DNA of 59,725 bases, from contig CAZKWE010000053.1 in assembly GCA_964556545.1 (NCBI GenBank), forward strand, positions 1 to 59,725. Direction: 5' to 3'. Source of the DNA: an uncultured Campylobacteraceae bacterium (GTDB lineage Bacteria; Campylobacterota; Campylobacteria; Campylobacterales; JALSKU01). The position numbers and the translations under genes are program-made. How positions within the stretch are numbered: the first letter of the stretch is position 1; every line of letters begins with the position of its first letter. The notes under the pieces are model-generated. The model made no database searches. It worked only from the letters and a program-made list of their open reading frames with translations, and was not told where the DNA came from. Shown one piece after another: positions 7,464 to 35,082 of the stretch.

Positions 7464-7471
7464 AAAAGATA

Positions 7472-21512: not shown

Positions 21513-21870
21513 TTATCTCTCTCCAGGCTTCTAAAAGTCCTTTTACTACTTTGTTTACGGTTGCTAAATCCTCTATGGAATTTTTTGCATTTGCCAATGA
21601 AAGCAGTTGAATTTGATAAGAGTACAATCCGTTTAAATATTTGGCAACTTCTCCACCGTTAAAATTTAATGAATTGATCAATTCTACAAAGATATCTACC
21701 GATCTGTTAATCCAGTATGATTTTCTTTCATAATTTTTTTGCTCTATGGCTTTTTTTGCCTGAAAATTAAATCTAAGTATTCCTTCATATAACATTTCGA
21801 TTAGTTTTTCTTTTGATTCGATGGATATATTGTTTTGTGTATATTCACTATATGCCAAATTAGTTCTCAT
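21490..21870 (-). CDS. fliS: Flagellin chaperone FliS
   Basis: AYSEY, LIEMLYEGIL, GGEVAKYLNGLY and GLLEAWRE. Confidence 0.96.
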   Translation of the reverse strand: MRTNLAYSEYTQNNISIESKEKLIEMLYEGILRFNFQAKKAIEQKNYERKSYWINRSVDIFVELINSLNFNGGEVAKYLNGLYSYQIQLLSLANAKNSIEDLATVNKVVKGLLEAWREINAKKNLD

Positions 21871-21882
21871 GATTATATCCTT

Positions 21883-23256
21883 TTATTGTTTTGTAGTTAA
21901 GAAATTTTGTATTTGCATCTGCAAAGATTGTGACTGTGCATTGAATGTTGAAATGATATTGTCATATGCTGCAAATTTTTTTGCCAATATATTGTATTTG
22001 TTTTCAATTTGTTTTGTCTGTTTGTCTTTTTGTTCCTCAAGATTTTTTAAATTTTCGTCAAGATATGTCTTATACAGTTTTATTTCACTGTTTTGGTCCA
22101 TAAAGATTGATTCTAATTTATCGTTTAAGTTTGCAAAAAGTCCTTTTTCCGGGTGTGTGTCGGTTTCTCCTTTGAAAAAATCCCTAACACTATTCGGATC
22201 AGTTTGTATTTTATTCTCAAGTACCGATTCGTCAAGTTCTAAATGCCCTGTACTGTTTTGTGTAATACCAAAATCAGCCAAAGATTTATTTGAACTGTCA
22301 AAACTAAATATGGTATTGTTTATATCGTATTTTATGCCTCTAATTTGACTTACACCTTGAAAAATACCCTGTTCTTTTGTCTTAATGTCATATTTTGTAG
22401 CTGCATCAAGGTTATCTACAAGGTTATTGTAGGCTGAAATAAAAGATTTTACCGTATCTTTTAAAGTATCCGTATCTTGTGATATTTTTATAGTGGTTTT
22501 TCCCGTATCGATCAGTTTTATTTCAACTCCCGCAACCAAATCATTTATATCGTTTGTACTTCTTGTGATATTGACACCGTTAAAAGTAAAATTTGCATCT
22601 TGTGCACCGTTGCCAACAGTTGTCAAAGACAAATCATCAGCTGCCGTACCGCCACCTGTTGAACTGATGGTTATAGCATTATCGGCTCCTGTTTCTGCAG
22701 ATTTGATAATCAACTTATACGGATCATCACCACCTACATTTAAGATAGAAGCAGTTATTTTACCGTTAGAGTTCTCATTTATTAATTGTTTTAATTGAGA
22801 AATAGTAGTGTTTTGATCTACTGAAATGCTAAAATTATCACCATTTGCCAATTCAAATTTAAGTGTATCGGCTCCGTCTGTAAAAGTACTTGTCTCTTGA
22901 TTGAAAGATTTTGACTCTTTTATATCATTTGTTGCTATATTTGTTATATCAAGATTGATAGACTGAGAAGGGGTGCCGTCTACAACTGTAGCAGTTGCCG
23001 AACTTCCGGTTATATCAGTAGAAACTTTCGAGTAAATACTATCATATGACAAAGTACTTGCACTACCTTTTAGAGTAGCTAAGAGTGTAGTCAAGTTTGC
23101 TAAAGAATCTTCTCTTTTTTTATCAAGTGAAATTTTTTTATCAAGCGGTTTTATAAGAGCATCTTGATCGGCTTTTTTCAACTTATCTATAATATCATAA
23201 CTAAGAGCTCCCTGACTACCGAGTCCCAAACTGCTTAAAGCACCAAAATCACCCAT
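21883..23256 (-). CDS. fliD: Flagellar filament cap FliD
   Basis: LSSLGLGS..LSYDIIDKLK N-terminus, AQDANFTFNGV..TRSTN and C-terminal KFAAYD helix. Confidence 0.95.
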   Translation of the reverse strand: MGDFGALSSLGLGSQGALSYDIIDKLKKADQDALIKPLDKKISLDKKREDSLANLTTLLATLKGSASTLSYDSIYSKVSTDITGSSATATVVDGTPSQSINLDITNIATNDIKESKSFNQETSTFTDGADTLKFELANGDNFSISVDQNTTISQLKQLINENSNGKITASILNVGGDDPYKLIIKSAETGADNAITISSTGGGTAADDLSLTTVGNGAQDANFTFNGVNITRSTNDINDLVAGVEIKLIDTGKTTIKISQDTDTLKDTVKSFISAYNNLVDNLDAATKYDIKTKEQGIFQGVSQIRGIKYDINNTIFSFDSSNKSLADFGITQNSTGHLELDESVLENKIQTDPNSVRDFFKGETDTHPEKGLFANLNDKLESIFMDQNSEIKLYKTYLDENLKNLEEQKDKQTKQIENKYNILAKKFAAYDNIISTFNAQSQSLQMQIQNFLTTKQ

Positions 23257-23259
23257 AAA

Positions 23260-23640
23260 TTATCCTTTTTTATCAAAAATCATACCTATGATTTCTTTCA
23301 TTTTTTCAGCTAATTTCATTGTCTCTTCAGAAGGAATTTTTCTGATGAGTTTACCTGTATTTTTCTCTGTTACATCAACAAACATAGTATCAATTTTGTC
23401 ATTAAAGCCAAATTTTATATTGATATTTAGTGAATCCATTTGGTCATTCAATCTTTTGACCGTATTGTTTAAATGTTGTTGAATATCTTTTTTATCCCGT
23501 TTGTTTTTTATCTCACTGCTTGTAGTGGTTGTATTTTGCTGGATTTGCTGTTTTTTTTGCAAATCAGATGTTTTAGCATGATCAGCATTGTAACTCGTTG
23601 TAGAGTCTATTTGCTTGCTTACGACATTAAATATATCCAT
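23260..23640 (-). CDS. flaG: Flagellar protein FlaG
   Basis: LNDQM..NINIKFGF..VDVTE..TGKLIRKIPSEE and GMIFDKKG C-terminus. The start may be GTG 23643. Confidence 0.93.
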   Translation of the reverse strand: MDIFNVVSKQIDSTTSYNADHAKTSDLQKKQQIQQNTTTTSSEIKNKRDKKDIQQHLNNTVKRLNDQMDSLNINIKFGFNDKIDTMFVDVTEKNTGKLIRKIPSEETMKLAEKMKEIIGMIFDKKG

Positions 23641-23676
23641 CACTTAACTCCTTTTGCTTTTGATTGCTTATCTCTA

Positions 23677-23703
23677 ATATCGTCAATTGTATTATAAACT
23701 TTA
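23677..23703 (-). promoter_or_regulatory. sigma28 (FliA) promoter for flaG-fliD-fliS
   Basis: Minus strand reads TAAA-N15-GACGATAT, matching the TAAA-N15-GCCGATAA consensus. Confidence 0.8.
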
Positions 23704-23712
23704 GAAAATTTT

Positions 23713-23721
23713 TGGTACAAT
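23713..23721 (+). promoter_or_regulatory. Extended -10 (sigma70-type) element for the hypothetical-rsmD pair
   Basis: TGgTACAAT 25 nt upstream of TTG 23747, back-to-back with the flaG sigma28 promoter. Confidence 0.5.
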
Positions 23722-23746
23722 AAAAGAAAAAATCAAAGGGTAGTGT

Positions 23747-24109
23747 TTGAAGATATCTATAATGTGTGATTCTTTGCTGTTGCAAAACAGTTTGGAAATT
23801 TTTTTAAGAGAGTATTTATCATCATACAAACAGTGTGAACTGGTGCTTAGTGATAAAAAGAGAGATTTGCAAAAACCCGTTATTGTTATAAATTCATCAA
23901 ATGACTCAGATATCAAAATACCATTTTCCAAATCATCATTGCTATTGGGGCTTCAAGAACTTTATAGATTAAAATATCCGGCAAAAGATAATAAAAATAA
24001 AAATATAAAAAAAGACAAACTTTGGAAATTGGAAAGAAAGATAGACAAATTGACACTTCAGTTTAGAGAAAATCTTATACAAACCATCAGGGATTTTTAT
24101 GAGGAATAA
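23747..24109 (+). CDS. Conserved Campylobacterota hypothetical protein upstream of rsmD
   Basis: 120-aa ORF, C-terminal coiled coil, overlaps the rsmD start. Confidence 0.75.
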   Translation: MKISIMCDSLLLQNSLEIFLREYLSSYKQCELVLSDKKRDLQKPVIVINSSNDSDIKIPFSKSSLLLGLQELYRLKYPAKDNKNKNIKKDKLWKLERKIDKLTLQFRENLIQTIRDFYEE

Positions 24110-24674
24110 ACTTTTTACAGCTATTAGCGGTGGAAAATACAAAGGTAAAAAATTATTGCTTCCTCCTTTATCATCAACAAGAAGCACAAAATCAATCATT
24201 AAAGAATCGTTTTTTAATACTGTGCAGTTTGAAATAATACAAAAAAATTTTATAGAACTGTTTGCAGGCAGTGGATCGATGGGACTTGAAGCAATCAGCA
24301 GAGGTGCAAAGAGAGCTTATTTCGTAGAAAAAGACGAAAATGCCTATGAAATACTATTGCAAAATATAGCAAGCTTAAATGTGGAAGATAAGTGCAGTGC
24401 CGTATATGGTAATACTTTTGTAGAATTTTACAATATAATAGAAAATATAGAAGAAAAAAGTTATTTTTATTTTGATCCTCCTTTTGAAATAAGAGATGGC
24501 ATGAATGAAATATATGAAAAATGTTATCAGCTTATAAAAAATATTCCGACTCAAAAATGCGAACTTATAGCCATAGAGCATATGAGCAGTATCGTGCCAC
24601 ATAGAGAAATTGGCAGTTATAAAATGCAAAAAAGTAAAAAATTCGGAAAAACAACAATAAGCTATTATAGATAA
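24099..24674 (+). CDS. rsmD: 16S rRNA m2G966 methyltransferase RsmD
   Basis: ISGGKYKGKKL, FIELFAGSGSMGLEAISRGA, FDPPF and KKFGKT. Confidence 0.93.
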   Translation: MRNKLFTAISGGKYKGKKLLLPPLSSTRSTKSIIKESFFNTVQFEIIQKNFIELFAGSGSMGLEAISRGAKRAYFVEKDENAYEILLQNIASLNVEDKCSAVYGNTFVEFYNIIENIEEKSYFYFDPPFEIRDGMNEIYEKCYQLIKNIPTQKCELIAIEHMSSIVPHREIGSYKMQKSKKFGKTTISYYR

Positions 24675-24730: not shown

Positions 24731-27700
24731 TTATTTGATTGACCAGAATCTTCCTCCTATTGTCTTTTCAATCTCAACTTTTCCATTTTTAACCGAAACT
24801 TCTTCCTGCACAGATGATTTCTCTTCGTGTGTAATGTCATCATCATATATCTCGGCAATTATATTTAGATTATAAGATACTTTGTATTTGCCATTTCCTT
24901 CAGGCTGTATATTTAATCCTGAAATTTTATACTCTATCTCATCAAAAACTCTAAAAGTTCTATTTAGATTATCTTCCAAATCAGATATATCTCCACCGGC
25001 ATATGACCAATCAGGAGAAAGAAAACTAACTACTCTACTCTCATCTTTTGACTCATAAGCCTCTTTAAAAGCTCTGTAAAAATCTTCTATTTTACGCTTG
25101 TCCTCTTCAGATAGACGGGAGGAGAGTCTTATATTTTTATTTATAGTAGGTTTTGCAACGGTTGATTTGCCAATCGAAATAGTAATAGCAGCATGAGTCA
25201 ATTTTGAATTTGCTTCAGGGTGCTGAAACCACACAATCCCTGCTTTGTGCTCCTTGTTGTATAGTTTTTTAATCCCAAATCCAAATTTTTTCAAGAGAGC
25301 TTCCGCCTCTTTTTCAGTTTTTCCGACAACAGATGGTACTTTGTCTAACAATTTATAAACATATAGAGTGACAGTTGATCCGTTTTTTACTTTTGTCTTG
25401 TACGGAGGAACTGTCTTTTGTACCACTCCGTTTAAGGTAGAGAGGGCTGTATGTACATTCACTATCTTATAGTTCAAATTCTTTACATATTTTTTAAGCA
25501 AATCTATAGCTTTGCTTTTTGATATGCCAGTCAATTTTGGCACGGTTACAAGATTTGAATACTTATATACCGTGATATTTACTGTTGAATTTGGTTTTGC
25601 TTCTACCCCGGATTTTGGAGTTTGGGATTTGACTTTGTTATTTAAATTTTTATTGTCTGTTATATAGTATGTCACTCTCTCTTTAAAACCGTTTTTTCGG
25701 ATGATTTTTATGGCCGTATCTTTACTAATTGCAACAACAGAAGGCACCAAAGAGTGCAGAGAATAAACCGAAAATGTAACTATCGAACCCCTCTTGACGA
25801 TAGTTCCCCAAGGAGGAGTTGAGCCTGGTTTAATCTTTCCGTTTAAGCTTGAAAATTTTGTACTCTCGTAGATAACTTTTGGTATGAGACCGGCATCTTT
25901 TATCTTTTTAATGGTTGCATCAACTGTTGTTGCAAGTGCCGGAACTTTGACTATATCTGATTTTGTGGGTGGATTTTTTTTGACATTTTCCGGTAGTTTT
26001 TGATTTGGTTTCAATTTAACAGTTAAAAATATCGTACTGTCATATCCATACTGACATCTGCTACCTCCTCTAGGAGATGTTGCTATCACGGTTCCAGCCG
26101 GTAAAGATGTGACATGTTTAACATACGACGAAGCCTCGCTTTCAAATCGTATATCTCTAAATCCTTTCTTTACTAAAATACTCTTTGCAATCTCAGGAGT
26201 AGCACCTAATACACTTGGCATTATCGGCATCTCTTGAGCATTTATGTCTGCTACAAGCAGTGTCATTCTCTCTGATTTACTTCTCACAACACCTATGGCA
26301 GGATCATCCATCTGCCCCAACACATCCAATACAGTTCCATCAATTGCACCTATCTTTTTCTCTTTTTTGACCGTAACATTTGTAAAGCCCAATTCTTTCA
26401 TCTCTTTTCTGGCATCTTTTATGGTTTTTCCACGAATATCAGGAGGTACGATGGCTTCATCCGATCTCATTTTTGGTATATAGACTTTTTTTCGGCAAAA
26501 AAGCTTGACTGTTTGAAATGTTTTGATCTTGCTTCCCCAAGCAGGATCTGATCGAACAAGTATATTTCCCTCTTTATATGATCTGTTTTCTACCTTCTCT
26601 GTTTTAAAATAGACCTTTCCTAATCTTGCTTTTAGTTTTTCAATATCTTTGTTTATGCCATCGCACTTTCTATTTTCCCAGTTTGGCAATATAGTCTCTT
26701 TTAGTTTTATCGTCGCTATCTTTACTTCAGAACCAGGAGCTATACAACTTATCTTCTCATCAAGAACTTTACCCTCTGCTATCTTATAAACAGATTTGTG
26801 ATTTTTTATATAATTCAATACATCCACATAGACAACTTTTGGTTTAAAACCGGCTCTCTTTAGTTTTGTGAGAGCATTGTTTATATCTTGATTTTTAACA
26901 TTTGGAGGATAGATACATTTTATAAGTTTGTAAACTTTTACATGTACTTTGGTAGGTCGAAACAGTATAGTTCCCGCTTTGACATCTTGATAATAAATTT
27001 TACCATCAAGTTTTCTGTTTTTTGCATTTTCTGCTATCTTTTTATAGGTTGGAGTTATGATGAGATATCTGTTTTGCTTAGCCTTTTGTAAACTCCACCC
27101 CTTGGTTAAATCAGGCATTTTAATCTTTGGAAAAGCATAAATCTGCACACCTATATATCTTGGTTTTTTGATTAAAGAGCCAGCCTTTATGCTTTGAGAA
27201 AATATCTTTCCATAGAGTTTAGGATTGGTTGTTTTTTTATATATATCTTGAATATATCCTATGGGAAGTTTGTATTTTTTTATCTTCGCCTTCGCTTCTT
27301 CTAATGTTAGCCCTTTAAGGTTTACCATTTTTTTTATCGGACCGGCATATTTATAAACATATAGTGTCAAAAGCACATTTCCATTTGCATCATACAAAGT
27401 GCTGCCACTTGAAGCATAACTTCTGTTTTTGCTTGGACCTTGCACCCATACTCTTTTTGTTTTTGAGCCAGAAAAAGAGGGAACAGTAATAGTTTCATAA
27501 TGCCCGTAAGAACTATCGTGTGTACTGCCTCCAGCAGAAGCAGGTGAACCTTTTGCAACGATAGTTTGTCCAGGATTTATGCTTTGTTTATAGATTCTGT
27601 TATATTTATCTGATGTAGTTGGAGTGTATAAAATCTTCAATGATATATTGGAATTTTTTAACTCTTTTTTTACTTCATCTATCCCTTTGCCTATAAAATC

Positions 27701-27961
27701 TTTCATGCGAAAGCTGTTGTACCAAACCGCATATACAACTCTATTTGAGATATGTATCTCATCTATCTTGTCAAATTGTGATATGTTTCTTGCGGGTCGA
27801 TATCTAAATCTAACACGAAAATGCATCTGATTCGCTTTGTTTATCAACTCTCGACCGCTTTTAAGGCTACCAAAAGGATTATATGCTGCCAAACTGTTTG
27901 TCGTTATCACCAATAGCAAAGCGATCATTGCCAACCATATGTGCTTAATTAAAATTTTCAT
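24731..27961 (-). CDS. Secreted poly-PASTA protein (~11-12 repeats) with C-terminal NTF2-like domain
   Basis: Sec signal peptide (ITTNSLA|A). Repeated ~65-70-aa units such as VPSVVGKTEKEAEALLKKFGF...GIVWFQHPEANSKL...ITISIG and VPKLTGISKSKAIDLL...GVVQKTVPPYKTKVKNGSTVTLYVY. Final ~125 aa has a helix-helix-beta-sheet NTF2/SnoaL pattern. AGGA RBS upstream. Confidence 0.85.
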   Translation of the reverse strand: MKILIKHIWLAMIALLLVITTNSLAAYNPFGSLKSGRELINKANQMHFRVRFRYRPARNISQFDKIDEIHISNRVVYAVWYNSFRMKDFIGKGIDEVKKELKNSNISLKILYTPTTSDKYNRIYKQSINPGQTIVAKGSPASAGGSTHDSSYGHYETITVPSFSGSKTKRVWVQGPSKNRSYASSGSTLYDANGNVLLTLYVYKYAGPIKKMVNLKGLTLEEAKAKIKKYKLPIGYIQDIYKKTTNPKLYGKIFSQSIKAGSLIKKPRYIGVQIYAFPKIKMPDLTKGWSLQKAKQNRYLIITPTYKKIAENAKNRKLDGKIYYQDVKAGTILFRPTKVHVKVYKLIKCIYPPNVKNQDINNALTKLKRAGFKPKVVYVDVLNYIKNHKSVYKIAEGKVLDEKISCIAPGSEVKIATIKLKETILPNWENRKCDGINKDIEKLKARLGKVYFKTEKVENRSYKEGNILVRSDPAWGSKIKTFQTVKLFCRKKVYIPKMRSDEAIVPPDIRGKTIKDARKEMKELGFTNVTVKKEKKIGAIDGTVLDVLGQMDDPAIGVVRSKSERMTLLVADINAQEMPIMPSVLGATPEIAKSILVKKGFRDIRFESEASSYVKHVTSLPAGTVIATSPRGGSRCQYGYDSTIFLTVKLKPNQKLPENVKKNPPTKSDIVKVPALATTVDATIKKIKDAGLIPKVIYESTKFSSLNGKIKPGSTPPWGTIVKRGSIVTFSVYSLHSLVPSVVAISKDTAIKIIRKNGFKERVTYYITDNKNLNNKVKSQTPKSGVEAKPNSTVNITVYKYSNLVTVPKLTGISKSKAIDLLKKYVKNLNYKIVNVHTALSTLNGVVQKTVPPYKTKVKNGSTVTLYVYKLLDKVPSVVGKTEKEAEALLKKFGFGIKKLYNKEHKAGIVWFQHPEANSKLTHAAITISIGKSTVAKPTINKNIRLSSRLSEEDKRKIEDFYRAFKEAYESKDESRVVSFLSPDWSYAGGDISDLEDNLNRTFRVFDEIEYKISGLNIQPEGNGKYKVSYNLNIIAEIYDDDITHEEKSSVQEEVSVKNGKVEIEKTIGGRFWSIK
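25167..27715 (-). repeat. Array of 11 diverged PASTA-domain repeats (plus one degenerate unit at ~27716-27886)
   Basis: Each unit shows [VM]P-x-[LV]-x-G-x-[ST]-x-x-x-A, then (G)-x-[VI]-x-x-[QT]-x-P-x-x-G, then a terminal [VI]-x-[LIF]-x-[VI]-Y strand. I saw no long DNA-level identity between units. Confidence 0.8.
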
Positions 27962-27996
27962 CTATGATTCCTGTAAATATATTGAGTAAATGGGTT

Positions 27997-29349
27997 TTAA
28001 AAATCCAAACCCCCATCAGAACGATATTTATAATCACATGTTACACTAGTATGTAGTCCCCCTGAAGTATCCGTGGTTGTAGTGCTACTAATATTTTTTA
28101 CTATGGCATAGGTATTGTTTGGTAATTTTACGGCATACACATGATCGTCATTATTTGTTGCTGCCACAGGTTGGGTGTCATAACCGGTTGTAGGAACACT
28201 CATATGGCTAAAATTTACATTCCCTGATCCATCAACTCCCAAATCTTGAATTTGGGCTCCAGAGTCCGGCCAAAAAACATTTCCTTCCAAAAAGATATCA
28301 GATGTTCCCATATCAAAATTTGAAATATCTACGATAGTTCCGCTATCAAATATAAATCCTTTATGTTGATTTCCTCCACTTGGTAAATCATCATATGATA
28401 AAGTGAATGAGCCACTTTCTATGTTATCATCTCCACTGTTTGTCGTATTGTTTATTATGTCAGCTATACTTTTTTCACTTATATCTCCAGAATTATTAAC
28501 TGTTATAAGTTTTTCATTGGAAACAGATACGACTGAACCATCAGCTACTTCTTGTGCATCACTTAATCCAAAAATAAGAGGATTTTTCATACTATATAAC
28601 ATAGCACCATATTTGCCATCTATAAAACTAAATTCCGTTATACCTTTGTCGCTATAAACCTTTCCATCTTTTGAAGATTCTAATGTCCTGTTAAAACTAA
28701 TACTTACAAGATATTTTCCACCTTGATAAGCTATAGAATTAATGGTAAAATCTATTTGTATATTGTCAAAAACATTAAAATCTTTTCTCAAAGCCAATTC
28801 AAGAGTTGTATCATCCCCGGTAAAATCTTCACTAACATATCTCATAAAACCGGATAAATCTTCATTGGAGTATGAAGTCTTTAAGTGATCAAGAGTGTTT
28901 CTGACTATTTCTTTGTAATTTTTGTTTATTATAGTAATAATTTTATGTGTATCTTCTAAGTCATTAGTTTTGCCAGTTGTGTCAATTATTTGGATATATA
29001 TATTGTATTTTTTGTCAATCTTCGGTTCAAATGAAAAATCAAAAGCACCATCCCTTGTTAATTTTGCTTTTTTCCATGTCTTTTTGCCATCTAATGTAAT
29101 AAGCACTCTTGCTATATTGGAATTTCCTGCATTTGCTTTTCCTCGTATATGAAGATATCCGTTGTCCAAAGAATCTTTTGAAAAGACAATCTCTTTTTTT
29201 GTCGAATCAAAAGATAGAGAGTTGATATATAGATAATTGATATTGACACTACTCTCGTTATGTCCAAAAATCCACCATTTTGCATTTGCATTAGTAAATA
29301 CAAGAAATAACAATAACGGAAATAATAATATTTTAAATCTATTTTTCAT
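27997..29349 (-). CDS. Secreted three-domain protein: Ig-like + NTF2-like + HmuY-like C-terminal domain
   Basis: Signal peptide (FTNANA|KWWIFG). Ig-like segment IRGKA..RVLITLDGKKTWKKAKL..FDFSF..IIDTTGK. NTF2-like middle domain. C-terminus HVYAVKLPNNTYAIVK...VTCDYKYRSDGGLDF. AAGGAG RBS overlapping the upstream stop. Confidence 0.75.
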   Translation of the reverse strand: MKNRFKILLFPLLLFLVFTNANAKWWIFGHNESSVNINYLYINSLSFDSTKKEIVFSKDSLDNGYLHIRGKANAGNSNIARVLITLDGKKTWKKAKLTRDGAFDFSFEPKIDKKYNIYIQIIDTTGKTNDLEDTHKIITIINKNYKEIVRNTLDHLKTSYSNEDLSGFMRYVSEDFTGDDTTLELALRKDFNVFDNIQIDFTINSIAYQGGKYLVSISFNRTLESSKDGKVYSDKGITEFSFIDGKYGAMLYSMKNPLIFGLSDAQEVADGSVVSVSNEKLITVNNSGDISEKSIADIINNTTNSGDDNIESGSFTLSYDDLPSGGNQHKGFIFDSGTIVDISNFDMGTSDIFLEGNVFWPDSGAQIQDLGVDGSGNVNFSHMSVPTTGYDTQPVAATNNDDHVYAVKLPNNTYAIVKNISSTTTTDTSGGLHTSVTCDYKYRSDGGLDF

Positions 29350-29359
29350 TTTAAACTCC

Positions 29360-30964
29360 TTAAAATCTTATCCTAACACCTAAAATGGTGCCCCTCTCTC
29401 TAAAATTTTTTGTATTTGTCGTATATGTGAAATCATTGTAAAATGCTCTAGCATAGATCATAACTCTCTTAAATGAGAAAAATATTTTAGGTCTGTAATA
29501 AATATTAAGGTTCAAAAAAACTTTTTTGCTATCGTCGCTTAGATCTCTATCGGATTTATTTTCTCCAATCTTTAATTTACCGGATAATCTATATTTCATA
29601 ACATCCACACCTAAACCAATCGATGCCTCATAATATTTATCAAGAGAACTCTTTAATTCATCTTTGTTAGATCGAGAACCTATATATAAAGAGGGCTTAA
29701 AAATATAATCTTTCTTTCTAATTTTACCGTTAAATTGTGTATTAATCCTGAATTCATGACTATCTTGAATATTTCCATCTGTTTTATAGCTATAATATGA
29801 AATATTTGTTGTATTGTAAATTTTTGCAAATCTGTCACTCATAGAAAAGTCTATGATATGATTTGTTATATTATTTGTGGTATCTGTTATATCTAACTTA
29901 TAGGTTAGATCAATAGTATTATGTCTTCTACCAAAAGCTTTTTTGTATGTTATTCCGATACTGGGTCTATACACATCTTTTCTATCGATTAATTGTCCGT
30001 CCAAGTCATTTCTATACCATAAAAAACCTATATGTGTTACAATCTTTTTTGTAGCTTTATATCTCCAAGAAGTTTTAAACTTTTCTCTATCCGGAGTTGC
30101 CGAACCTGTTAATGTAATATAATAAGGTGAAACTCTTTCATACTCCACCAAAACTCTACTTGGATTTTTATTTCCGATTGCTCTTATTTTAAAAGCATTG
30201 CCGCTAAAATTTTCATTTGCAGTTGTATCAGAAGTATTTTTCGTGTTATTTGAATGGGAAAATTCACTATAAATATCTAAGTCCGGTATGGGTATATAAT
30301 TTATATCCATAGTATATAGATGATTATTGTATAACGGAACACCTCCAAATATTCTATCTTTATCGTTAGAATAGACAAAACTTACACCTATATCCATTTT
30401 GCCATCCAAAATTTTCCTTCTGTACCTAGTTCCATAGACACTTCTTTTTATTGCTTTTGTTTTGTTGTCCCAAAAGCTATCCCATCTTGGATATGCTATA
30501 CCATAAACTATTTGTAGTTGATTTGTAATGTCTTTACTAAGATATCTATAGGATACACCCTTTAAAGCTGTATTTAAAGAGTATTGAGAAAAAGATTCAA
30601 ATACATCTCCAACTCTAAATGTATTTATTTTATTTTTAAGGGTAATTTGCATATTTGTAATAGAAATATCTTTAGGATCCTTTTTTCTATTATCTGTTGC
30701 CTTTAAACCTAAATTTATAATATATTTATATTTTTTAAGTTTACCTTTTTTGTAATAATTAAAAATATTGAAATATCTTAATCCATCCACAAGAGAAGAG
30801 TTTTTTTTGCCGGGACCGGTTATATCATTGTATTGAAGATAAAAATCATTCTTGATGGCAACTTTATCTAAATCTGAAGAAAATAATGTTAAACTTATAG
30901 GGAATATAGCTACGAAAAAAGAAAATAAAAACTTTCTATAAGATAAAAAAGATAAAAATTTCAT
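29360..30964 (-). CDS. Outer-membrane beta-barrel protein of unknown family
   Basis: Signal peptide, then alternating aromatic/hydrophobic strands along the whole chain, and a C-terminal Phe (GVRIRF) typical of BAM substrates. ATG 30964 has an AAGG RBS; the ORF extends to TTG 30982. Confidence 0.8.
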   Translation of the reverse strand: MKFLSFLSYRKFLFSFFVAIFPISLTLFSSDLDKVAIKNDFYLQYNDITGPGKKNSSLVDGLRYFNIFNYYKKGKLKKYKYIINLGLKATDNRKKDPKDISITNMQITLKNKINTFRVGDVFESFSQYSLNTALKGVSYRYLSKDITNQLQIVYGIAYPRWDSFWDNKTKAIKRSVYGTRYRRKILDGKMDIGVSFVYSNDKDRIFGGVPLYNNHLYTMDINYIPIPDLDIYSEFSHSNNTKNTSDTTANENFSGNAFKIRAIGNKNPSRVLVEYERVSPYYITLTGSATPDREKFKTSWRYKATKKIVTHIGFLWYRNDLDGQLIDRKDVYRPSIGITYKKAFGRRHNTIDLTYKLDITDTTNNITNHIIDFSMSDRFAKIYNTTNISYYSYKTDGNIQDSHEFRINTQFNGKIRKKDYIFKPSLYIGSRSNKDELKSSLDKYYEASIGLGVDVMKYRLSGKLKIGENKSDRDLSDDSKKVFLNLNIYYRPKIFFSFKRVMIYARAFYNDFTYTTNTKNFRERGTILGVRIRF

Positions 30965-31076
30965 AATCAAACCTTTTTGCAAAGTTAAAAAAACATAATA
31001 TAGAATCTATATCATAAATAAGATTCAGCTCTTTGTTTTAACTTAATTATTAAAATTAAATTTTTTTACTAAGTTA

Positions 31077-31082
31077 ATTATA
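31077..31082 (-). promoter_or_regulatory. Candidate sigma70 -10 (TATAAT) for the barrel/PASTA operon
   Basis: Perfect TATAAT on the minus strand ~113 nt upstream of ATG 30964. The region is very AT-rich, so specificity is limited. Confidence 0.35.
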
Positions 31083-31128
31083 CTATCATATATTTAAAGA
31101 AAAATAAAATAATAAAACAATTTATTTA

Positions 31129-31163
31129 GAACGGATTTTGCTTTATTGGAACGGATTTTGCTT
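31129..31163 (+). repeat. Tandem direct repeat GAACGGATTTTGCTT x2 (15 bp, 20-bp period)
   Basis: Exact copies at 31129-31143 and 31149-31163. Confidence 0.95.
31146..31163 (+). promoter_or_regulatory. sigma54 (RpoN) promoter for the flgI operon
   Basis: TTGGAACGGATTTTGCTT: GG(31148-9)-N10-GC(31160-1), 40 nt upstream of the flgI TTG. Confidence 0.88.
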
Positions 31164-31200
31164 CAATATAGTATCAAGATATCGTTTCAAGGAAAAATTA

Positions 31201-32250
31201 TTGAAAAAGATCATTTTATTTTTAACCGTTTTATTCGTTTTGTTGCAGGCTGAAAAAATTCAAAATCTTGTAAATGTTGTGGGCGTAAGAAACAATCAAG
31301 TTATAGGATATGGTCTTGTAGTAGGATTAAACGGTACCGGTGACGGTACAACATCCGCTTTTACGGTAAGATCTCTTTCAAATCTTCTTCAAACGGTAAA
31401 TGTAAAAATAGATCCGAAAGATATCAAATCAAAAAATATAGCCGCAGTTATAGTAACCGCAAAACTTCCTCCTTTTGCAAGACAAGGAGATAAACTCGAT
31501 GTTACGGTATCATCTATAGGCGATGCAAAATCCATAGAAGGCGGAACTCTTTTGATAACTCCGCTTAAAGGCGTAGATGGTAAAATATATGCTTTGGCCC
31601 AAGGTTCACTTAGCATAGGCGGAAAAAACGGCAGAGGAAGAGGAGAGTTAAATCATCCTACAGCAGGAACTATACTTAATGGTGCCTTGGTTGAAAGGAA
31701 TGTTGCATATGATATATATGATAAAAAGTATTTAAAACTTTCTTTAAAAAATTCCAGCTTTCAAACCGCTATGCAGATAGAAAAGTCACTTAATGCTATA
31801 TTTGATGAAAAAGTAGCTGTTGCAATTGATCCAAAAACAATCAACTTAAAAAAACCGGATGATATGAGTGTGATATCATTTATGGCCAAGATTTTAAATG
31901 CGGATATATCTTACAAGCCGGATGAAAAGATAGTCATAGACGAAAGAACAGGTACCATAGTTGCGGGGGTAGGTATAAAAATAGATCCTGTGGTTATAAC
32001 ACATAAGAATATAACTATTAAAATAGAACCTGTAAAAAAAATTATAGATAACAACAGCAGTATAAAAATAGGAAACAAAGTTGCGATCAATACAAAAGAT
32101 TTTGCTTTAAATATGGAAAAAAACAGTGTTACCATATCTAATTTAACCAGAGCATTACAAAAACTCGGAGCAAAACCTAAAGATATCATCTCTATCATAG
32201 AGAGTATCAAAAAAGCAGGTGCTATACGAGCAGATGTGGAGATAATATGA
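31201..32250 (+). CDS. flgI: Flagellar P-ring protein FlgI (TTG start)
   Basis: GVRNNQVIGYGLVVGLNGTGD, AAVIVTAKLPPF, SSIGDAKSIEGGTLL and IVIDERTGTIV. AAGGA RBS at 31189-31193. Confidence 0.98.
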   Translation: MKKIILFLTVLFVLLQAEKIQNLVNVVGVRNNQVIGYGLVVGLNGTGDGTTSAFTVRSLSNLLQTVNVKIDPKDIKSKNIAAVIVTAKLPPFARQGDKLDVTVSSIGDAKSIEGGTLLITPLKGVDGKIYALAQGSLSIGGKNGRGRGELNHPTAGTILNGALVERNVAYDIYDKKYLKLSLKNSSFQTAMQIEKSLNAIFDEKVAVAIDPKTINLKKPDDMSVISFMAKILNADISYKPDEKIVIDERTGTIVAGVGIKIDPVVITHKNITIKIEPVKKIIDNNSSIKIGNKVAINTKDFALNMEKNSVTISNLTRALQKLGAKPKDIISIIESIKKAGAIRADVEII

Positions 32251-32531
32251 TCAAGATAGACAATTATGTGGCTTTAACTGATGCAAACAGTATGCCAAGA
32301 ATTATCAAAAGCGATAATGATACAAAATTAAGAGAACAAACAGATAAATTTGAAGCATTTTTTATCAAAAAGGTTTTGGATATTTCTATAAAAACAGATA
32401 ATGCACTTTTTCCAAAAGGTGCAGGTGATGAGATATACAGATCAATGTATAATGATGCAATGAGTGATAAATTGAGCGGAAGATTTGGCTTTAGTGAATT
32501 ATTGTTTAATTATTTGAAACAAAAAGGTTAA
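32247..32531 (+). CDS. flgJ: Short FlgJ-type rod-binding protein (no muramidase domain)
   Basis: LREQTDKFEAFFIKKVL and EIYRSMYND..S..GFSELLFNYL. Confidence 0.85.
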   Translation: MIKIDNYVALTDANSMPRIIKSDNDTKLREQTDKFEAFFIKKVLDISIKTDNALFPKGAGDEIYRSMYNDAMSDKLSGRFGFSELLFNYLKQKG

Positions 32532-32554
32532 AAAAAAAATGAAATTGTCGATAT
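32528..32554 (+). promoter_or_regulatory. sigma28 promoter for flgM
   Basis: -10 GTCGATAT at 32547-32554 with TTAA/TAAA 15/14 nt upstream. The spacer contains an A10 tract. Confidence 0.7.
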
Positions 32555-32585
32555 ATGAGCAGATAAAAACTGCAAAGGATAAAAG

Positions 32586-32789
32586 ATGATTTCAAAGGTA
32601 AATGCTGGAAATGCATTGGTAAATAATTATAAAGTTTCCAACGATCAAGAAAAACGGCAGATACAAAATAAAAATTTAAAAAGTAAAGAAGAGAGCAGGT
32701 TAGAATCTATAAAAAAGAGTATTGAAAACGGATCATATAAAATTGATTTGGATAAGACTGCAAACAAGATAGCTGATACTCTAATCTGA
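32586..32789 (+). CDS. flgM: Anti-sigma28 factor FlgM
   Basis: RLESIKKSIENGSYKIDLDKTA motif, between flgJ and flgN. Confidence 0.93.
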   Translation: MISKVNAGNALVNNYKVSNDQEKRQIQNKNLKSKEESRLESIKKSIENGSYKIDLDKTANKIADTLI

Positions 32790-32818
32790 CTCCTTCTTTG
32801 CTCTATTTAGGAGTGAAG

Positions 32819-33247
32819 ATGATAAACTACTATCTTAAAAGTTCCATTAAAAATATTGAAGATTTGATATCTTTGACAAAAAGTGACATAAAAGATATAA
32901 AAGAGGCAAATAATGATGCCATATATCAAAGAACAAAAATAAAAGATGAAATTTTAGATATATTTGAAAGCCAAAAGTCTTTACTCGATAGTGAATTGGT
33001 AAAACTTATGAAAATAAATGAAGGTATTGAATTGAATGAACTTTTAAATAAAGAAGAACAGAAAAATCTTGATATATTTAAAACAAAGTTAAAAGAGTTG
33101 CATAAAATAAACAAAGAGTATGCAAGACTCGTTGTTGCAGTCAATGAATTTTATACTTCCTTGTTTGATAAAATATTTCCTACGGAAATGGAAAATTATA
33201 AAAAAACAAATCCAAAAAGTTTTTCTTTGCTGAAAGTGAGTGCATAA
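32819..33247 (+). CDS. flgN: Flagellar export chaperone FlgN
   Basis: Helical protein (TKSDIKDIKEAN, LKELHKINKEYARLV) between flgM and flgK. AGGAG at 32809-32813 supports ATG 32819. Confidence 0.85.
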   Translation: MINYYLKSSIKNIEDLISLTKSDIKDIKEANNDAIYQRTKIKDEILDIFESQKSLLDSELVKLMKINEGIELNELLNKEEQKNLDIFKTKLKELHKINKEYARLVVAVNEFYTSLFDKIFPTEMENYKKTNPKSFSLLKVSA

Positions 33248-35082
33248 TGAGTCTTTTTAGTTCACTTGATACGGGTTATACTGGCTTAAATGCTTCTCAG
33301 CTGCAAATGGGAACCGTAAGTCAAAATATTGCCAATGCAAATACCGAAGGCTATACCAGAGAGCGTTTAATCACCAGAGCACAAGAACCTCTTCATACAA
33401 CACCGGGAGATATAGGCAGAGGAGTAAAATTTGTCTCAGTTACCAGAATACATAATGAATTTGTTTTTTCAAGACTGAGAGAAAGCTCAAGTAAATTAGA
33501 ATACAATAATTTTTCAAAACAAACACTTGAAGAAGTGGCAAAAGCCTTTCCTGATACTGATGGAGTAGGTTTGCAAAATGATATGAAAAACTATTTTGAT
33601 GCATGGAACTCTTTGGCTTCAAATCCTACAAGTTCAGCATCAAAAACCGACCTTGCACAAAATACACAGACTTTTTTAAATAACTTGAAAGATACAAGAA
33701 AAAGAGTCAGATCTACCCAGGATGCATTGAATACACAATTAAAAGTAAGTATAGATGAAGTCAACTCTATAGGTAAAAAAATAGCTGATTTAAATGCAAA
33801 GATAGGAAATGTCGAATCCATAAAAAACAATCATGCAAATGACTTAAGAGACGAAAGAGACAAACTTGAACTGTCTCTTGCTAAATTGCTTGATTTTTCC
33901 GTTTTCAAAGGAGATATGAAAAGTGATATCAGTGTGGATAGGGATCTAACTGACGGCGGTAAAGAGTATTATTTAAATATATCAGGAGAATCTTTTGTAG
34001 ACGGTGCTACTTTTCATCCTCTTGTTTTGGACAACAAAGATAATGAGAGTGCATATTATTCAATTTATCACGAAAGCCAAGATGGCAGTAGAATTGATGT
34101 AGGCAAAAAGATAACAGGCGGAAAAATAGGTGCAATTTTAAATTTGAGAGGCAGAGATATAGATGGAAGCACATCTTATCCAAAAGATGGAATAATTCAA
34201 AATTATATAGATTCTCTTGATGCTTTTGCAAAAGGATTTGCAGAAAAAACAAATTCGGTATATGCAGGTAGTGCGGTTGACAAGATGGATTCGTCACAAT
34301 TGAGTTTAGATGATAATGCCGCATTGCTAAAAAGTGATTACAATATCAAACAAGGCAGTTTTGATATTGTTATGTATGACGGCGATGGCAATGAAATAGG
34401 CAGAAAAAGCATCAAAATAGATGAAAATACAACTATGGATGATGGCAGTGATAGCAGTATAGTTGGCCAATTAAACAAATCAACTGATGATAATGGCGAT
34501 AACAATTCAACAAATGACTTTGATGATTATTTTTCAGCTTACTACTCTACCAATGGCCATATATTGTCGATTCAGCCAAAGGGAAACCATAACTATAAAA
34601 TAGCTATCGAAGATCACGATACCAATTTTGCAGGAGCAACAGGCATCAACTCTTTTTTTATAGGTGATAATGCTTCAAATATTTCTTTAAAGAGAGATTT
34701 TATAGATGATCCTACAAAGATAAATGCTTATAAAAATCCGGTTGACGGTGATAATCAGATAGCAAATCAAATATTGCAGATCCAATATCACGATGTAGAG
34801 TTTAAGTACAATAACGGTTTAACCATAAAAGATACCCCTGATGGTTTTTATAGAAATATTACCGGTAAAATTGCAACAGATGCACAAAACAGCGGAAGAG
34901 ACCAAGAAACTTCTCAGGCAATTTTTAATGCTGTAAACCAAGAACAACAATCAATCAGCGGTGTTAATATAGACGAAGAGTTGGCAAACCTGTTAAAGTA
35001 CCAAACAGCATATAGTGCTAATGCAAAAATAATAAGCACAATAGACAAAATGCTTGATGCATTGCTTTCGATTAAACAGTAA
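33247..35082 (+). CDS. flgK: Flagellar hook-associated protein FlgK
   Basis: GYTGLNASQ..NIANANTEGYTRER, NDLRDERD and SGVNIDEELANLLKYQTAYSANAK. Confidence 0.97.
   Translation: MSLFSSLDTGYTGLNASQLQMGTVSQNIANANTEGYTRERLITRAQEPLHTTPGDIGRGVKFVSVTRIHNEFVFSRLRESSSKLEYNNFSKQTLEEVAKAFPDTDGVGLQNDMKNYFDAWNSLASNPTSSASKTDLAQNTQTFLNNLKDTRKRVRSTQDALNTQLKVSIDEVNSIGKKIADLNAKIGNVESIKNNHANDLRDERDKLELSLAKLLDFSVFKGDMKSDISVDRDLTDGGKEYYLNISGESFVDGATFHPLVLDNKDNESAYYSIYHESQDGSRIDVGKKITGGKIGAILNLRGRDIDGSTSYPKDGIIQNYIDSLDAFAKGFAEKTNSVYAGSAVDKMDSSQLSLDDNAALLKSDYNIKQGSFDIVMYDGDGNEIGRKSIKIDENTTMDDGSDSSIVGQLNKSTDDNGDNNSTNDFDDYFSAYYSTNGHILSIQPKGNHNYKIAIEDHDTNFAGATGINSFFIGDNASNISLKRDFIDDPTKINAYKNPVDGDNQIANQILQIQYHDVEFKYNNGLTIKDTPDGFYRNITGKIATDAQNSGRDQETSQAIFNAVNQEQQSISGVNIDEELANLLKYQTAYSANAKIISTIDKMLDALLSIKQ

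Follow-up and report, generated by a model that had tools for sequence, protein, structure and literature searches.

RESULTS

A three-gene locus encoding exported proteins

The DNA analyzed here, referred to as the window, is a stretch of 59,725 nucleotides from contig CAZKWE010000053.1 of the genome assembly of an uncultured Campylobacteraceae bacterium (GCA_964556545.1). Its minus strand carries three co-oriented genes: A, coding for a predicted outer-membrane 26-strand β-barrel (29360..30982, an ORF of 540 aa), B, coding for a putative secreted adaptor protein (27997..29349, 450 aa), and C, coding for a putative secreted rod protein (24731..27961, 1076 aa). The gap between A and B is 10 nt and that between B and C is 35 nt; no terminator-like site was found in either. 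Gene B is preceded by a ribosome-binding site AAGGAG located 8 nt 5′ of the start codon, and gene C by AGGAA at ~7 nt. In gene A, the sequence AAAGG precedes an in-frame ATG codon at position 30964. This ATG, which gives 534 aa as in the database copy P0001, is a likelier start than the TTG at 30982. All three proteins begin with a Sec-type signal peptide and none contains a lipobox. The ORF coordinates, spacing, ribosome-binding sites and signals all match the original prediction, which had described three closely spaced co-oriented genes, each with its own ribosome-binding site and Sec signal.

The AT-rich intergenic region 5′ of A (30983..31137), divergent from flgI, is the presumed promoter region of an A-B-C operon. 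Promoter-like matches within it were no more frequent than in shuffled sequence, and therefore no promoter was assigned. Pfam and NCBIfam searches revealed no enzyme domain in A, B or C, as expected from the predicted absence of enzyme motifs. Every other gene of the window that was sampled is housekeeping or flagellar, in line with the claim that the trio is the only sizeable non-housekeeping block in the window.

Gene A encodes a predicted 26-strand β-barrel

The AlphaFold2 (AF2) monomer model of A (mean pLDDT 92.6, pTM 0.80) contains 26 strands, which bears out the prediction of an outer-membrane β-barrel. The modeled barrel starts right after the signal peptide, with no plug and no extra or periplasmic domain, and the protein ends in ...GVRIRF. 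The modeling shows A as a predicted BAM-type 26-strand barrel devoid of a plug or periplasmic domain. Homologs of A form 192 clusters, all annotated as 'hypothetical', and no Pfam, NCBIfam or PDB-sequence family match was found. In a Foldseek search the lowest E-values were obtained with the usher pores FimD/PapC (E 1.8e-9; usher TM-scores 0.36–0.49) and the best global match was MtrB (query-normalized TM-score, TMq, 0.56); AlgE was also among the matches. Because such matches are generic to large barrels (TM 0.3–0.56), neither an usher-like nor an Mtr-like function can be read from them. Membership of the barrel in a characterized family was thus looked for by sequence and by structure, and none was found.

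The most conserved segments of A are residues 128–139, 163–178 and 285–298, which correspond to outside loops under standard topology. The concentration of conservation in these loops suggests that, if the standard N-in topology is assumed, they are covered by a conserved partner. Residues R299, K301 and K303 form an invariant row on one strand.

Gene B encodes a multidomain candidate adaptor

B consists of a signal peptide, a KWWIFG peptide, an Ig-like domain, an NTF2-like domain, a conserved linker and a β-sandwich; the AF2 monomer model (pLDDT 83.9) contains three domains. All 174 clusters of B homologs, including that of Geobacter sulfurreducens, are annotated as 'hypothetical', and no Pfam, NCBIfam or PDB-sequence family could be assigned to the protein as a whole. 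The KWWIFG peptide (aa 24–29; 29263..29280, minus strand, as are all features of B and C below) directly follows a predicted AxA signal-peptidase site and forms the mature N-terminus. The corresponding motif, [K/G]WW[I/L/V]FG, is found at the mature N-terminus in 84 of 84 B homologs from at least five phyla. The peptide has low pLDDT in the monomer model, and on this ground it probably docks on a partner.

The Ig-like domain (aa 36–141; 28927..29244) is matched by Pfam models Mo-co_dimer (E 8.7e-5) and Big_13 (E 0.013). The profile of B alignment A2 matches the sulfite oxidase C-terminal domain (E 9e-4), and Foldseek retrieves the sulfite oxidase dimerization domain (3hbg, E 2.7e-6). The NTF2-like domain (aa 145–254; 28588..28917) is an α+β cone in the AF2 model, with helices at 145–161, 165–169 and 180–193 followed by four long strands. 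Its target-normalized TM-score (TMt) to the NTF2-like proteins 3rob and 3hx8 is 0.72–0.75, and Foldseek also matches it to the NTF2 domains of Pgp2 (6xj6) and Bd1075 (7o21). Next comes a conserved linear motif, SMKNPLIFGLSDA (aa about 253–271; 28537..28593), in which K255, P257, F260, G261, A265 and G271 are invariant in alignment A2. The motif is present in 36 of the 84 homologs, mainly of type 1 (see below), and has pLDDT of only 64–79; neither it nor the KWWIFG-type motif is well packed in the monomer model.

The C-terminal β-sandwich (aa 310–450; 28000..28422; AF2 strands within aa 310–443) ends in a near-invariant ...YKYxxDGxxxF. It defines 'type 1' B proteins, and is present in 45 and absent from 39 of the 84 homologs. 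Its profile match to the HmuY-like protein 3u22 is weak (E 0.014). The Ig/NTF2/HmuY-like composition proposed earlier for B thus holds, though weakly so for the HmuY-like part.

Gene C encodes a poly-PASTA protein with an NTF2-like C-terminal domain

In C, a signal peptide is followed by ~12 PASTA units and an NTF2-like C-terminal domain (CTD). The body is a tandem array of ~12 PASTA-like units (aa about 82–930; 25172..27718) recognized by Pfam, by an iterated profile and by eye. Pfam PASTA (PF03793) matches ten stretches (E 7.4e-69), and a purpose-built iterated profile also gives ten units; two further PASTA-like stretches, at about aa 541–650 in a gap that spans aa 541–675, were identified by eye. 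No kinase or transpeptidase domain was detected in C with the Pkinase and Transpeptidase Pfam models. The NCBIfam PknB model NF033483 scores 221.9 against a cut-off of 450, and the PASTA part alone matches (profile positions 366–560). The full architecture of C is common to only six clusters.

The CTD (aa 950–1076; 24734..25114) is the family signature common to all C proteins. Proteins of 1100–1350 aa from four phyla, unrelated to C in other respects, have C-termini that are 38–48% identical to it, and the domain has 372 representatives among 1.84 billion proteins. Among the best 150 matches it occupies the extreme C-terminus in the proteins of at least 850 aa; full-length representatives are 900–1400 aa long. 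No Pfam, NCBIfam or PDB-sequence family matches the CTD. It is, however, homologous to the NTF2-like domain of B (hhalign probability 96.4%, E 1.5e-9), in agreement with the NTF2-like domain that B and C had been predicted to share; together with the Pfam result, this also confirms the description of C as a poly-PASTA/NTF2 protein. The three helices on a curved antiparallel sheet typical of the NTF2-like fold are seen for B in the AF2 model and TMt values, and extend to the CTD through its homology to B. Among 41 C-family proteins scanned, one matches SnoaL_3 (4e-12) and one DUF4440, position within the protein not being given in either case.

The body of C is variable among relatives

The C proteins of nearly all homologous loci have a helical body of 900–1400 aa in which Pfam recognizes no domain. 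The poly-PASTA body is a minority type, found in ~6 protein clusters, one of them from a Desulfuromonadales MAG whose C matches the window C body with E 3e-215; of the 41 C proteins sampled, ~5 contain PASTA. Neither body type is enzymatic, and both are elongated. In many helical bodies a Gly/Ala-rich stretch of moderate hydrophobicity lies close to the N-terminus. L008, one of the two closest relatives of the window locus, has a helical C. Its A and B are ~74% identical to those of the window and its CTD is 69% identical, whereas the C bodies are non-homologous. Such an outright swap between close relatives would fit a modular display cargo.

On this point the original prediction needs correction, PASTA not being a defining part of the system: with a helical body in nearly all loci and poly-PASTA in only a few lineages, that of the window among them, the core has to be defined without it. 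Judged by sequence comparison, the conserved core comprises a barrel, an Ig-NTF2 adaptor and a long protein that varies except for its NTF2-like C-terminal domain.

The A-B-C unit recurs across phyla

A scan of 185,579 species genomes yielded 127 confirmed stretches with the module. B is encoded at all 82 non-redundant loci with an A homolog. Of the 64 loci with at least 5.5 kb of downstream sequence, 60 encode both B and a CTD protein of at least 700 aa; no C was detected at the other four. Gene order and strand are almost always A-B-C, the same order being found in more than 80 independent genomes. The loci come from Campylobacterota, Desulfobacterota, Nitrospirota, Elusimicrobiota, Omnitrophota and a few Gammaproteobacteria (5–6 phyla), and the trio is also present in the laboratory model G. 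sulfurreducens. In the window, at L008 and at L089 it lies in three different genomic contexts, and no other neighboring gene is conserved in common across phyla. Many genomes contain extra B-C pairs, with several pairs per barrel. Pairwise identities of neighboring B and CTD sequences correlate (r = 0.71), a value confounded by phylogeny.

Co-occurrence across phyla had been set beforehand as the main refutation test of the original prediction, which it passed. The comparison of loci shows A-B-C to be a real and self-contained unit whose genes, as far as genome sequences tell, are inherited together across phyla. With 127 stretches in 185,579 species genomes, the module is accessory, neither essential nor universal.

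Comparison with known systems

No described system matched the trio, as the original prediction had anticipated, and no paper on A, B or the CTD was found in the literature. Among PADLOC defense models, none matched A, B or the helical C proteins; the window C matches PD-T4-6 through its PASTA region only.

The chaperone-usher pathway resembles the locus in that FimD/PapC top the E-values for A, a barrel gene is followed by genes for secreted Ig-fold partners, and a short N-terminal peptide of the partner, here B, may dock by strand addition. Ushers have 24 strands, a plug inside the barrel, and one N-terminal and two C-terminal domains. A, in contrast, has 26 predicted strands, lacks the plug and the N- and C-terminal domains, and shows ~9% sequence identity to ushers; the Usher Pfam model does not match it at E ≤ 1. 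No PapD-like chaperone or pilin scored above cut-off in B, C or related loci, the sole fimbrial signal in B/C being BcfE (E 0.003, 17 bits against a cut-off of 240). Two-partner secretion, in which TpsB is an Omp85-type 16-strand barrel with POTRA domains and the TpsA cargo has an N-terminal TPS domain, was rejected, since there were no ShlB, POTRA or TPS Pfam matches and the 26-strand barrel of A begins straight after the signal peptide.

Porin-cytochrome conduits such as MtrCAB (MtrB sheathing MtrA, 6r2q) likewise have a 26-strand barrel encoded beside soluble partners (TMq 0.56), are found in similar organisms (Geobacter, Desulfuromonadales), and resemble our proposal, in which an elongated protein would pass through the wide barrel and another partner would sit at the opposite face. 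However, there is no sequence similarity, and beside A are encoded an Ig/NTF2 protein and a PASTA or helical protein. The large barrel (about 20–26 strands) with partners is thus present but multiheme cytochromes are not: the heme-binding motif CxxCH is absent from the window A, B and C and occurs in only 2 of 204 homologous B/C ORFs. In LptD-LptE, the lumen of a 26-strand barrel is filled by a separately encoded small protein, a role that B could take. Unlike LptD, A has no N-terminal β-jellyroll, and no LptD, OstA or LptE model of Pfam or NCBIfam matches; nor is B LptE-like, as it has no lipobox and hence is not a lipoprotein.

As in T9SS and T11SS-Slam cargos, a conserved folded C-terminal domain is carried by variable large proteins, and as in T11SS an outer-membrane barrel is encoded with the cargo. 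The tag here is NTF2-like rather than an Ig-like sandwich or an 8-strand barrel, the taxa are different, and no Por/Spr, DUF560 or Por_Secre_tail matches were found on A, B or C. Like PknB/Stk1 and PBP2x, C carries bona fide PASTA units, which make up its body. PASTA proteins usually have 1–5 units, compared to ~12 in C, and C differs from PASTA kinases and PBPs in having no catalytic domain or transmembrane anchor, an NTF2-like C-terminus and a diderm host. Finally, in Pgp2, Csd6 and Bd1075 an NTF2-like accessory domain is likewise part of a Sec-exported envelope protein of related bacteria (6xj6, 7o21); the LD-carboxypeptidase domain of those enzymes is missing here and the likeness is at the level of the fold only.

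DISCUSSION

We tentatively propose, at somewhat less than an even chance, that A, B and C form one outer-membrane complex that holds the long, thin, fast-evolving C rod at the cell envelope. Barrel A would hold or sheathe the rod through the CTD, with B as an adaptor or cap. B would dock on A by its N-terminal KWWIFG peptide and Ig domain, and its NTF2-like domain would pair with the NTF2-like CTD of the cognate C; with such pairing, the CTD would serve as an address tag and stopper. The body of C would be threaded through, or project from, the wide barrel, for which MtrA inside MtrB and LptE inside LptD provide analogs, and in our preferred reading most of C would be displayed on the cell surface. 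Extra B-C pairs would represent alternative cargos for one barrel. The poly-PASTA form of C may bind glycan or peptidoglycan. PASTA and periplasmic NTF2 domains such as that of Pgp2 bind peptidoglycan, and this speaks for a periplasmic rather than a surface location; moreover, no energy source or chaperone for export of a 1000-aa protein is encoded nearby.

These last points lead to a different arrangement, rather unlikely in our estimation, in which C is wholly periplasmic, A and B are a mere anchor, and the body and NTF2-like domains bind the sacculus, the whole acting as a tether between outer membrane and peptidoglycan that sets envelope spacing or stiffness. The 10–12 units of C argue for it, PASTA being the peptidoglycan- and β-lactam-sensing module of PBP2x and PknB, as do the presence of Sec signals only on A, B and C and the absence of an export energizer nearby. 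It is also consistent with the Foldseek matches of the B NTF2-like domain, given that the Pgp2 NTF2 domain binds peptidoglycan fragments and that of Bd1075 targets the enzyme within the periplasm (PMC8938487). That likeness, however, is fold-level only (rmsd 14 Å over the whole alignment), and with PASTA in just ~5 of 41 C proteins, binding of peptidoglycan through PASTA cannot be the conserved function. An open 26-strand barrel would be an extravagant anchor compared to a lipid or an OmpA-type 8-strand barrel, and a structural periplasmic protein would not usually exchange its entire body between close relatives, as C has done.

The barrel-first operon, usher pores as top Foldseek matches of A, several B-C pairs per barrel and a conserved C-terminal tag on a variable protein could also describe a secretion channel; T9SS and T11SS cargos likewise use C-terminal domains. 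A would then export C into the medium or onto neighbors as an effector or adhesin, B being a periplasmic chaperone or plug that reads the CTD signal and stays outside the final structure. The Gly/Ala-rich segment near the N-terminus of many helical bodies would agree with this. Yet none of the loci has a gene for a toxin or an enzyme, or one that resembles an immunity gene; the poly-PASTA and long helical bodies look more like structural proteins than effectors; and no such released protein has been reported for Geobacter. We regard export of this kind as distinctly improbable.

We see only a slight chance that A is a substrate channel and that NTF2-like cavities of B and C carry lipid or hydrophobic cargo to or from the outer membrane in the manner of MlaC, an NTF2-like protein that binds phospholipid. 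NTF2-like folds do often form ligand cavities, and the R299, K301, K303 row of A could face the lumen of a pore that conducts an anionic substrate, an arrangement known from AlgE. But the conserved surroundings include no gene for an ABC transporter, a glycosyltransferase or lipid metabolism, and no TonB box; A gives no signal of the TonB-dependent receptor, porin or LptD families, and the variable 900–1400 aa body of C is left unexplained. That A, B and C are functionally unrelated genes adjacent by chance is effectively refuted by their occurrence together at 60 of 64 informative loci in 5–6 phyla and different contexts, and by the homologous domain in B and C, from a CTD family with only 372 representatives in 1.84 billion proteins.

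Returning to the proposed outer-membrane complex, the trio could in a broader version, which we hold as doubtful, be the minimal form of an unrecognized display/secretion pathway of the outer membrane. The 26-strand barrel and an Ig-NTF2 adaptor, with its invariant N-terminal KWWIFG as docking peptide, would translocate, and then retain at the surface, giant CTD-addressed modular proteins with swappable bodies (helical rods or poly-PASTA), several adaptor-cargo pairs being served by one barrel. The trio fits no described family or system, which makes it a good candidate for an envelope machine of a new kind.

Gene organization of the trio

Examination of the locus revealed three ORFs arranged head to tail on the reverse strand: A (29360-30982, 540 aa), encoding the outer-membrane barrel, B (27997-29349, 450 aa), encoding the putative Ig/NTF2 adaptor, and C (24731-27961, 1076 aa), encoding the proposed rod protein. 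The A-B and B-C gaps, 10 and 35 nt long, contain no terminator-like site. Ribosome-binding sequences AAGGAG and AGGAA are located 8 nt and about 7 nt upstream of the ATG codons of B and C, respectively. In A, an in-frame ATG at 30964 is preceded by AAAGG and is a likelier start than the TTG at 30982, since the database copy of the protein (cluster P0001) is 534 aa long. Sec-type signal peptides open all three products and a lipobox is absent from each. The layout in the original prediction, with separate ribosome-binding sites, narrow gaps and Sec signals, was thus borne out. A promoter and terminator scan of the trio region found sites no more commonly than in shuffled sequence.

The GC content of the trio, 30-34%, is the same as that of the remaining window. 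Other window genes, as sampled, were all housekeeping or flagellar, in agreement with the view that the trio is the only non-housekeeping block of its size. It is directly flanked by fliS, fliD, flaG, an rsmD-like gene, flgI, a rod-binding protein gene and flgK; ftsA, a SurA-like gene, an acrB-like gene, proS, gatB, cysS and genes for a K+ channel and an M16 peptidase are found farther away. The flagellar neighbourhood is split by the trio into two parts (21490-24674 and 31138-35082). On one side, fliS, fliD and flaG are followed by a 120-aa ORF (23747-24109) that overlaps the start of the rsmD-like methyltransferase gene. On the other side, flgI and the gene of a 94-aa rod-binding (FlgJ-like) protein are separated from flgK by a 149-aa ORF. 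Neither ORF has a family match. At 52321-54228, distant from the other flagellar genes, lies the gene of a 635-aa product that contains FapA_N (flagellar assembly protein A).

Recurrence in other genomes

Gene neighbourhoods were read in Desulfatiglandales, Elusimicrobiales, Nitrospirota, Geobacter sulfurreducens and one further 3.7-Mb genome. In each, a barrel of 532-546 aa is followed by a 405-450 aa protein and then by a 1096-1348 aa protein, all on a single strand. A species scan with one genome per species yielded 127 confirmed stretches, 80 of which were fetched. These come from Campylobacterota (Campylobacterales, Halarcobacter, Sulfuricurvum and Sulfurospirillum), Desulfobacterota (Geobacter, Desulfuromonadales, Syntrophorhabdus aromaticivorans, Smithella and Desulfatiglans), Nitrospirota/Thermodesulfovibrio, Elusimicrobiota, Omnitrophota and Moraxellaceae/Fluviicoccus. 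Co-occurrence was counted in non-redundant loci by applying our own HMMs to six-frame ORFs. B was present in every A locus (82/82), and in 60 of the 64 loci whose sequence extends 5.5 kb or more downstream of A it was accompanied by a protein of at least 700 aa carrying the NTF2-like C-terminal domain of C (CTD). Recurrence of the trio across phyla is thereby established, and the original prediction came through the co-occurrence test that it had set for its own refutation.

Across phyla, the module is not accompanied by any further conserved gene. The sole recurrent neighbour, found in Desulfuromonadales and Thermodesulfovibrio, encodes a membrane-bound LuxR-type regulator and is transcribed divergently. 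This LuxR/GerE protein, a multi-pass membrane protein of about 440 aa, adjoins the module in L006 (6175-7500; G. sulfurreducens), L013, L016-L018, L021, L024, L027, L028, L036, L043 and L044, is encoded on the other strand in both loci inspected (L006 and L028) and is not found in the window. At the G. sulfurreducens PCA module the regulator is GSU2670, which is reported to be upregulated in gsu1771-mutant biofilm (PMC10599522); the module genes themselves probably bear the tags GSU2671-2674.

The trio occurs in three unrelated contexts: among flagellar genes in the window, in a different context in L008 and next to dapD/ABC-F in L089. A flagellar link was considered and rejected, since the trio is not in that context in L008 or L089 and its conserved neighbours do not include any flagellar gene. 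A mobile element or defence island was likewise rejected, since no plasmid or phage copies of the module were found, PADLOC gave no match and the GC content is like that of the surroundings. Given the recurrence in unrelated contexts and the lack of plasmid or phage copies, we conclude that the module is an autonomous chromosomal cassette and that its flagellar neighbours in the window are a coincidence.

The barrel

An AlphaFold2 model of A, built from an alignment of 39 sequences, had a mean pLDDT of 92.6 and a pTM of 0.80. In the model, the signal peptide is directly followed by 26 predicted antiparallel strands, with no plug, periplasmic domain or extra domain. The protein ends in ...GVRIRF, as does a classical outer-membrane protein. 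Searches of Pfam and NCBIfam gave nothing at E<=1, and sequence and profile searches of the PDB found no relative. The precomputed label PF21620, attached to a few A homologues, was not reproduced at E<=1 in the three labelled homologues scanned. Foldseek matched the model to generic large barrels only, all at about 9% identity: FimD/PapC usher pores (E 1.8e-9, TM 0.36-0.49), MtrB, which had the best TM of 0.56, and also AlgE and Occ porins. For this reason A was not assigned to the ushers or to the Mtr family. All 192 homologous clusters are "hypothetical" or unnamed; the G. sulfurreducens PCA copy (AAR36043.1) bears the UniProt name "Outer membrane channel".

The family alignment shows short, variable turns on the side presumed to be periplasmic. 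The three best-conserved segments, FESFSQYSL (128-139), AYPRWDSFW (163-178) and SP..TL.GSATPD (285-298), are loops that lie on the outer side under the standard topology; the strand with invariant R299, K301 and K303 is likewise conserved. Such conservation of outer loops is unusual for exposed surfaces, which suggests that they are either covered by a conserved partner or folded into the lumen.

The putative adaptor

The AlphaFold2 model of B (pLDDT 83.9) contains three domains. An Ig-like sandwich (aa 36-141) is supported by matches to Pfam Mo-co_dimer (E 8.7e-5), to sulfite oxidase C-terminal domains in a profile search (E 9e-4) and in Foldseek (E 2.7e-6). It is followed by an NTF2-like cone (aa 145-254), with target-normalised TM-scores of 0.72-0.75 to 3rob and 3hx8 and Foldseek matches to the NTF2 domains of Pgp2 (6xj6) and Bd1075 (7o21). 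The third domain is a C-terminal beta-sandwich (aa 310-443) with a marginal HmuY-like profile match only (3u22, E 0.014). PDB searches with B returned nothing besides the Ig domain and this match. Thus, of the original description of B as Ig/NTF2/HmuY-like, the first two parts stand and HmuY is weakly supported. All 174 homologous clusters are "hypothetical" or unnamed.

Immediately behind the AxA cleavage site, mature B begins with KWWIFG (aa 24-29; 29263-29280). A [K/G]WW[I/L/V]FG motif occupies this position in 84/84 B homologues from at least five phyla (L001-L087). A second motif, SMKNPLIFGLSDA (also given as NPLIFGLSDA), follows the NTF2 domain and is present in 36 of the 84. Since both motifs are poorly packed in the monomer model, they may serve as docking peptides.

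The C-terminal sandwich is present in 45/84 homologues (type 1) and absent in 39/84 (type 2). Many genomes have a second B-C pair beside a single barrel, one B having the sandwich and the other lacking it. Loci with two B-C pairs or NTF2 variants are L001, L005, L056 and L064 in Desulfobacterota and L055, L075 and L086 in Elusimicrobiota. Type 2 B-C pairs may have more than one origin. In Geobacter and Nitrospirota, a secreted protein of about 160 aa consisting of an NTF2-like domain alone is added, and some C proteins of Elusimicrobia end in Ig plus NTF2, the same pair that starts B.

The proposed rod protein: a constant C-terminal domain and a variable body

Ten PASTA stretches were identified in C by Pfam (E 7.4e-69) and ten units by our own iterated profile. 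Two further stretches at about aa 541-650 are PASTA-like by eye, bringing the total to about 12 units within aa 82-930. No kinase or transpeptidase domain is present; the NCBIfam PknB model matches the PASTA part alone, with a score below cut-off. The final 125 or so residues constitute the CTD, a conserved domain in its own right. When profiles of the B NTF2 domain (90 sequences) and of the CTD (83 sequences) were compared with each other, they matched with a probability of 96.4% (E 1.5e-9, 102 columns). Judged by this match, B and C have a homologous NTF2-like domain in common, as had been predicted. As a family the CTD is small and specific: 1.84 billion proteins contain 372 representatives. 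Among the best 150 of these, the domain lies at the extreme C-terminus in proteins of at least 850 aa; shorter matches are probably metagenomic fragments or small NTF2-only proteins. Two members are unusually long, P0267 (1720 aa), with three CTD-like stretches, and P0341 (1951 aa).

Between phyla, A and B are 38-45% identical, and C is conserved in the CTD alone (37-48% identity), the bodies that precede it being unrelated. Nearly all C bodies are helical, 900-1400 aa long and rich in charged residues. Pfam scans of more than 20 homologues detected no domain in helical bodies, and PDB searches with their N-termini matched designed helical bundles only. A search of these bodies for a transmembrane hairpin turned up no more than hydrophobic segments of borderline strength, present in about half. 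Poly-PASTA is the less common type of body: the whole architecture is found in 6 clusters, and PASTA in 5 of the 41 CTD proteins sampled. The poly-PASTA protein in the original prediction is therefore real, but PASTA characterizes the cargo body of certain lineages and is not a component of the system.

Body type is not the same in two close relatives of the window, L089 and L008. In L089, the genome carrying P0003, P0123 and P0260, C is a PASTA protein, and A, B and C are 73%, 76% and 75% identical to those of the window. In L008 (Campylobacterales MAG Dive100_bin10.109, the nearest relative of the window found in the genome collection), A and B are 74% and 75% identical, and the helical C aligns with window C over the last 85 residues only (69% identity). 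The poly-PASTA C of L028 (5413-9624; Desulfuromonadales MAG 42485_Bin_1) is homologous to window positions 25172-27718 (E 3e-215, 44% identity over 373 aa). A homologous poly-PASTA body in a different phylum, together with a helical body in a near relative, implies either that two body types coexisted in ancient times or that a body cassette was exchanged between lineages. In L008, two ORFs of 213 and 314 aa (7007-7648 and 7651-8595) take the place of an intact barrel gene, owing to either a frameshift/pseudogene or an assembly error.

Comparison with known systems

The barrel of A has 26 strands, compared to 24 in ushers, and lacks the plug and extra domains; no PapD-like chaperone is present in the module. 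The module contains no POTRA or TPS domain of two-partner secretion. The barrel size agrees with porin-cytochrome systems, but haem motifs are absent. The beta-jellyroll and lipoprotein plug of LptDE are missing, as is from C the catalytic domain of PASTA kinases and PBPs. The tag fold differs from that of T9SS/T11SS, with which there are no common components, and PADLOC defence systems gave no match outside the PASTA region of C. Scans of Pfam, NCBIfam and PADLOC returned nothing for A, B (the Mo-co_dimer match of its Ig-like domain aside) or helical C bodies. No literature was found on the three proteins, including the presumed Geobacter tags GSU2666-2674, the architecture and the supplements of Geobacter omics papers. 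The module is in none of the compared families, as the original prediction held, and is new by family membership; it may act as a plug-and-barrel or sheath complex, and its general logic resembles known barrel-partner complexes. What stands of the initial interpretation is a real, conserved and undescribed envelope module with a common NTF2-like domain; PASTA as a part of the system does not.

Discussion

The module is strictly co-inherited and has no enzymes, ATPases or haem motifs. We tentatively propose that B would dock on or in the barrel via KWWIFG and the Ig domain, that its NTF2-like domain would pair with the CTD of the cognate C, and that the thin C rod would be held or sheathed by the barrel, across or at the outer membrane. 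Taken jointly, these steps are quite possible. Models for sheathing are MtrA inside 26-strand MtrB and LptE inside 26-strand LptD. Both types of C body, beads on a string and helical rod, are thin and elongated and so would fit threading. We lean towards surface display of C, since an anchor alone would hardly need 26 strands, turnover of the C body resembles that of a surface protein, and the outer loops of A are conserved as though covered.

The main alternative, rather unlikely in our estimate, is a purely periplasmic tether to peptidoglycan. Peptidoglycan is the ligand of PASTA domains, but most C proteins do not have them. Two NTF2 domains also speak for a tether: the one in Pgp2 is a binder of peptidoglycan fragments, and the one in Bd1075 serves to target the enzyme (PMC8938487). 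Release of C as an effector or adhesin, chaperoned by B, is improbable, and a role of the module as a ligand or lipid channel very improbable. Chance adjacency of the three genes is contradicted by the co-occurrence data and effectively excluded.

The known machines of the outer membrane that transport or retain proteins are few and have been studied intensively: Bam/Tam, ushers, TPS, autotransporters, T9SS, Slam, Lpt and Mtr. The module described here is compact, extends from Campylobacterota to Elusimicrobiota, and its barrel, adaptor and cargo tag are in no described family. It is also carried by G. sulfurreducens, whose genetics are tractable, and can thus be tested directly. If the barrel holds or exports the rod, the architecture, a 26-strand barrel with an in-trans adaptor and an NTF2-like C-terminal address tag, would be new, and the module would also exemplify the exchange of entire cargo bodies. 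Should it prove to be a tether, an outer-membrane-to-peptidoglycan type would join the envelope tethers known from diderms. In such bacteria poly-PASTA proteins are unusual, and those found here would broaden the supposed roles of PASTA domains.
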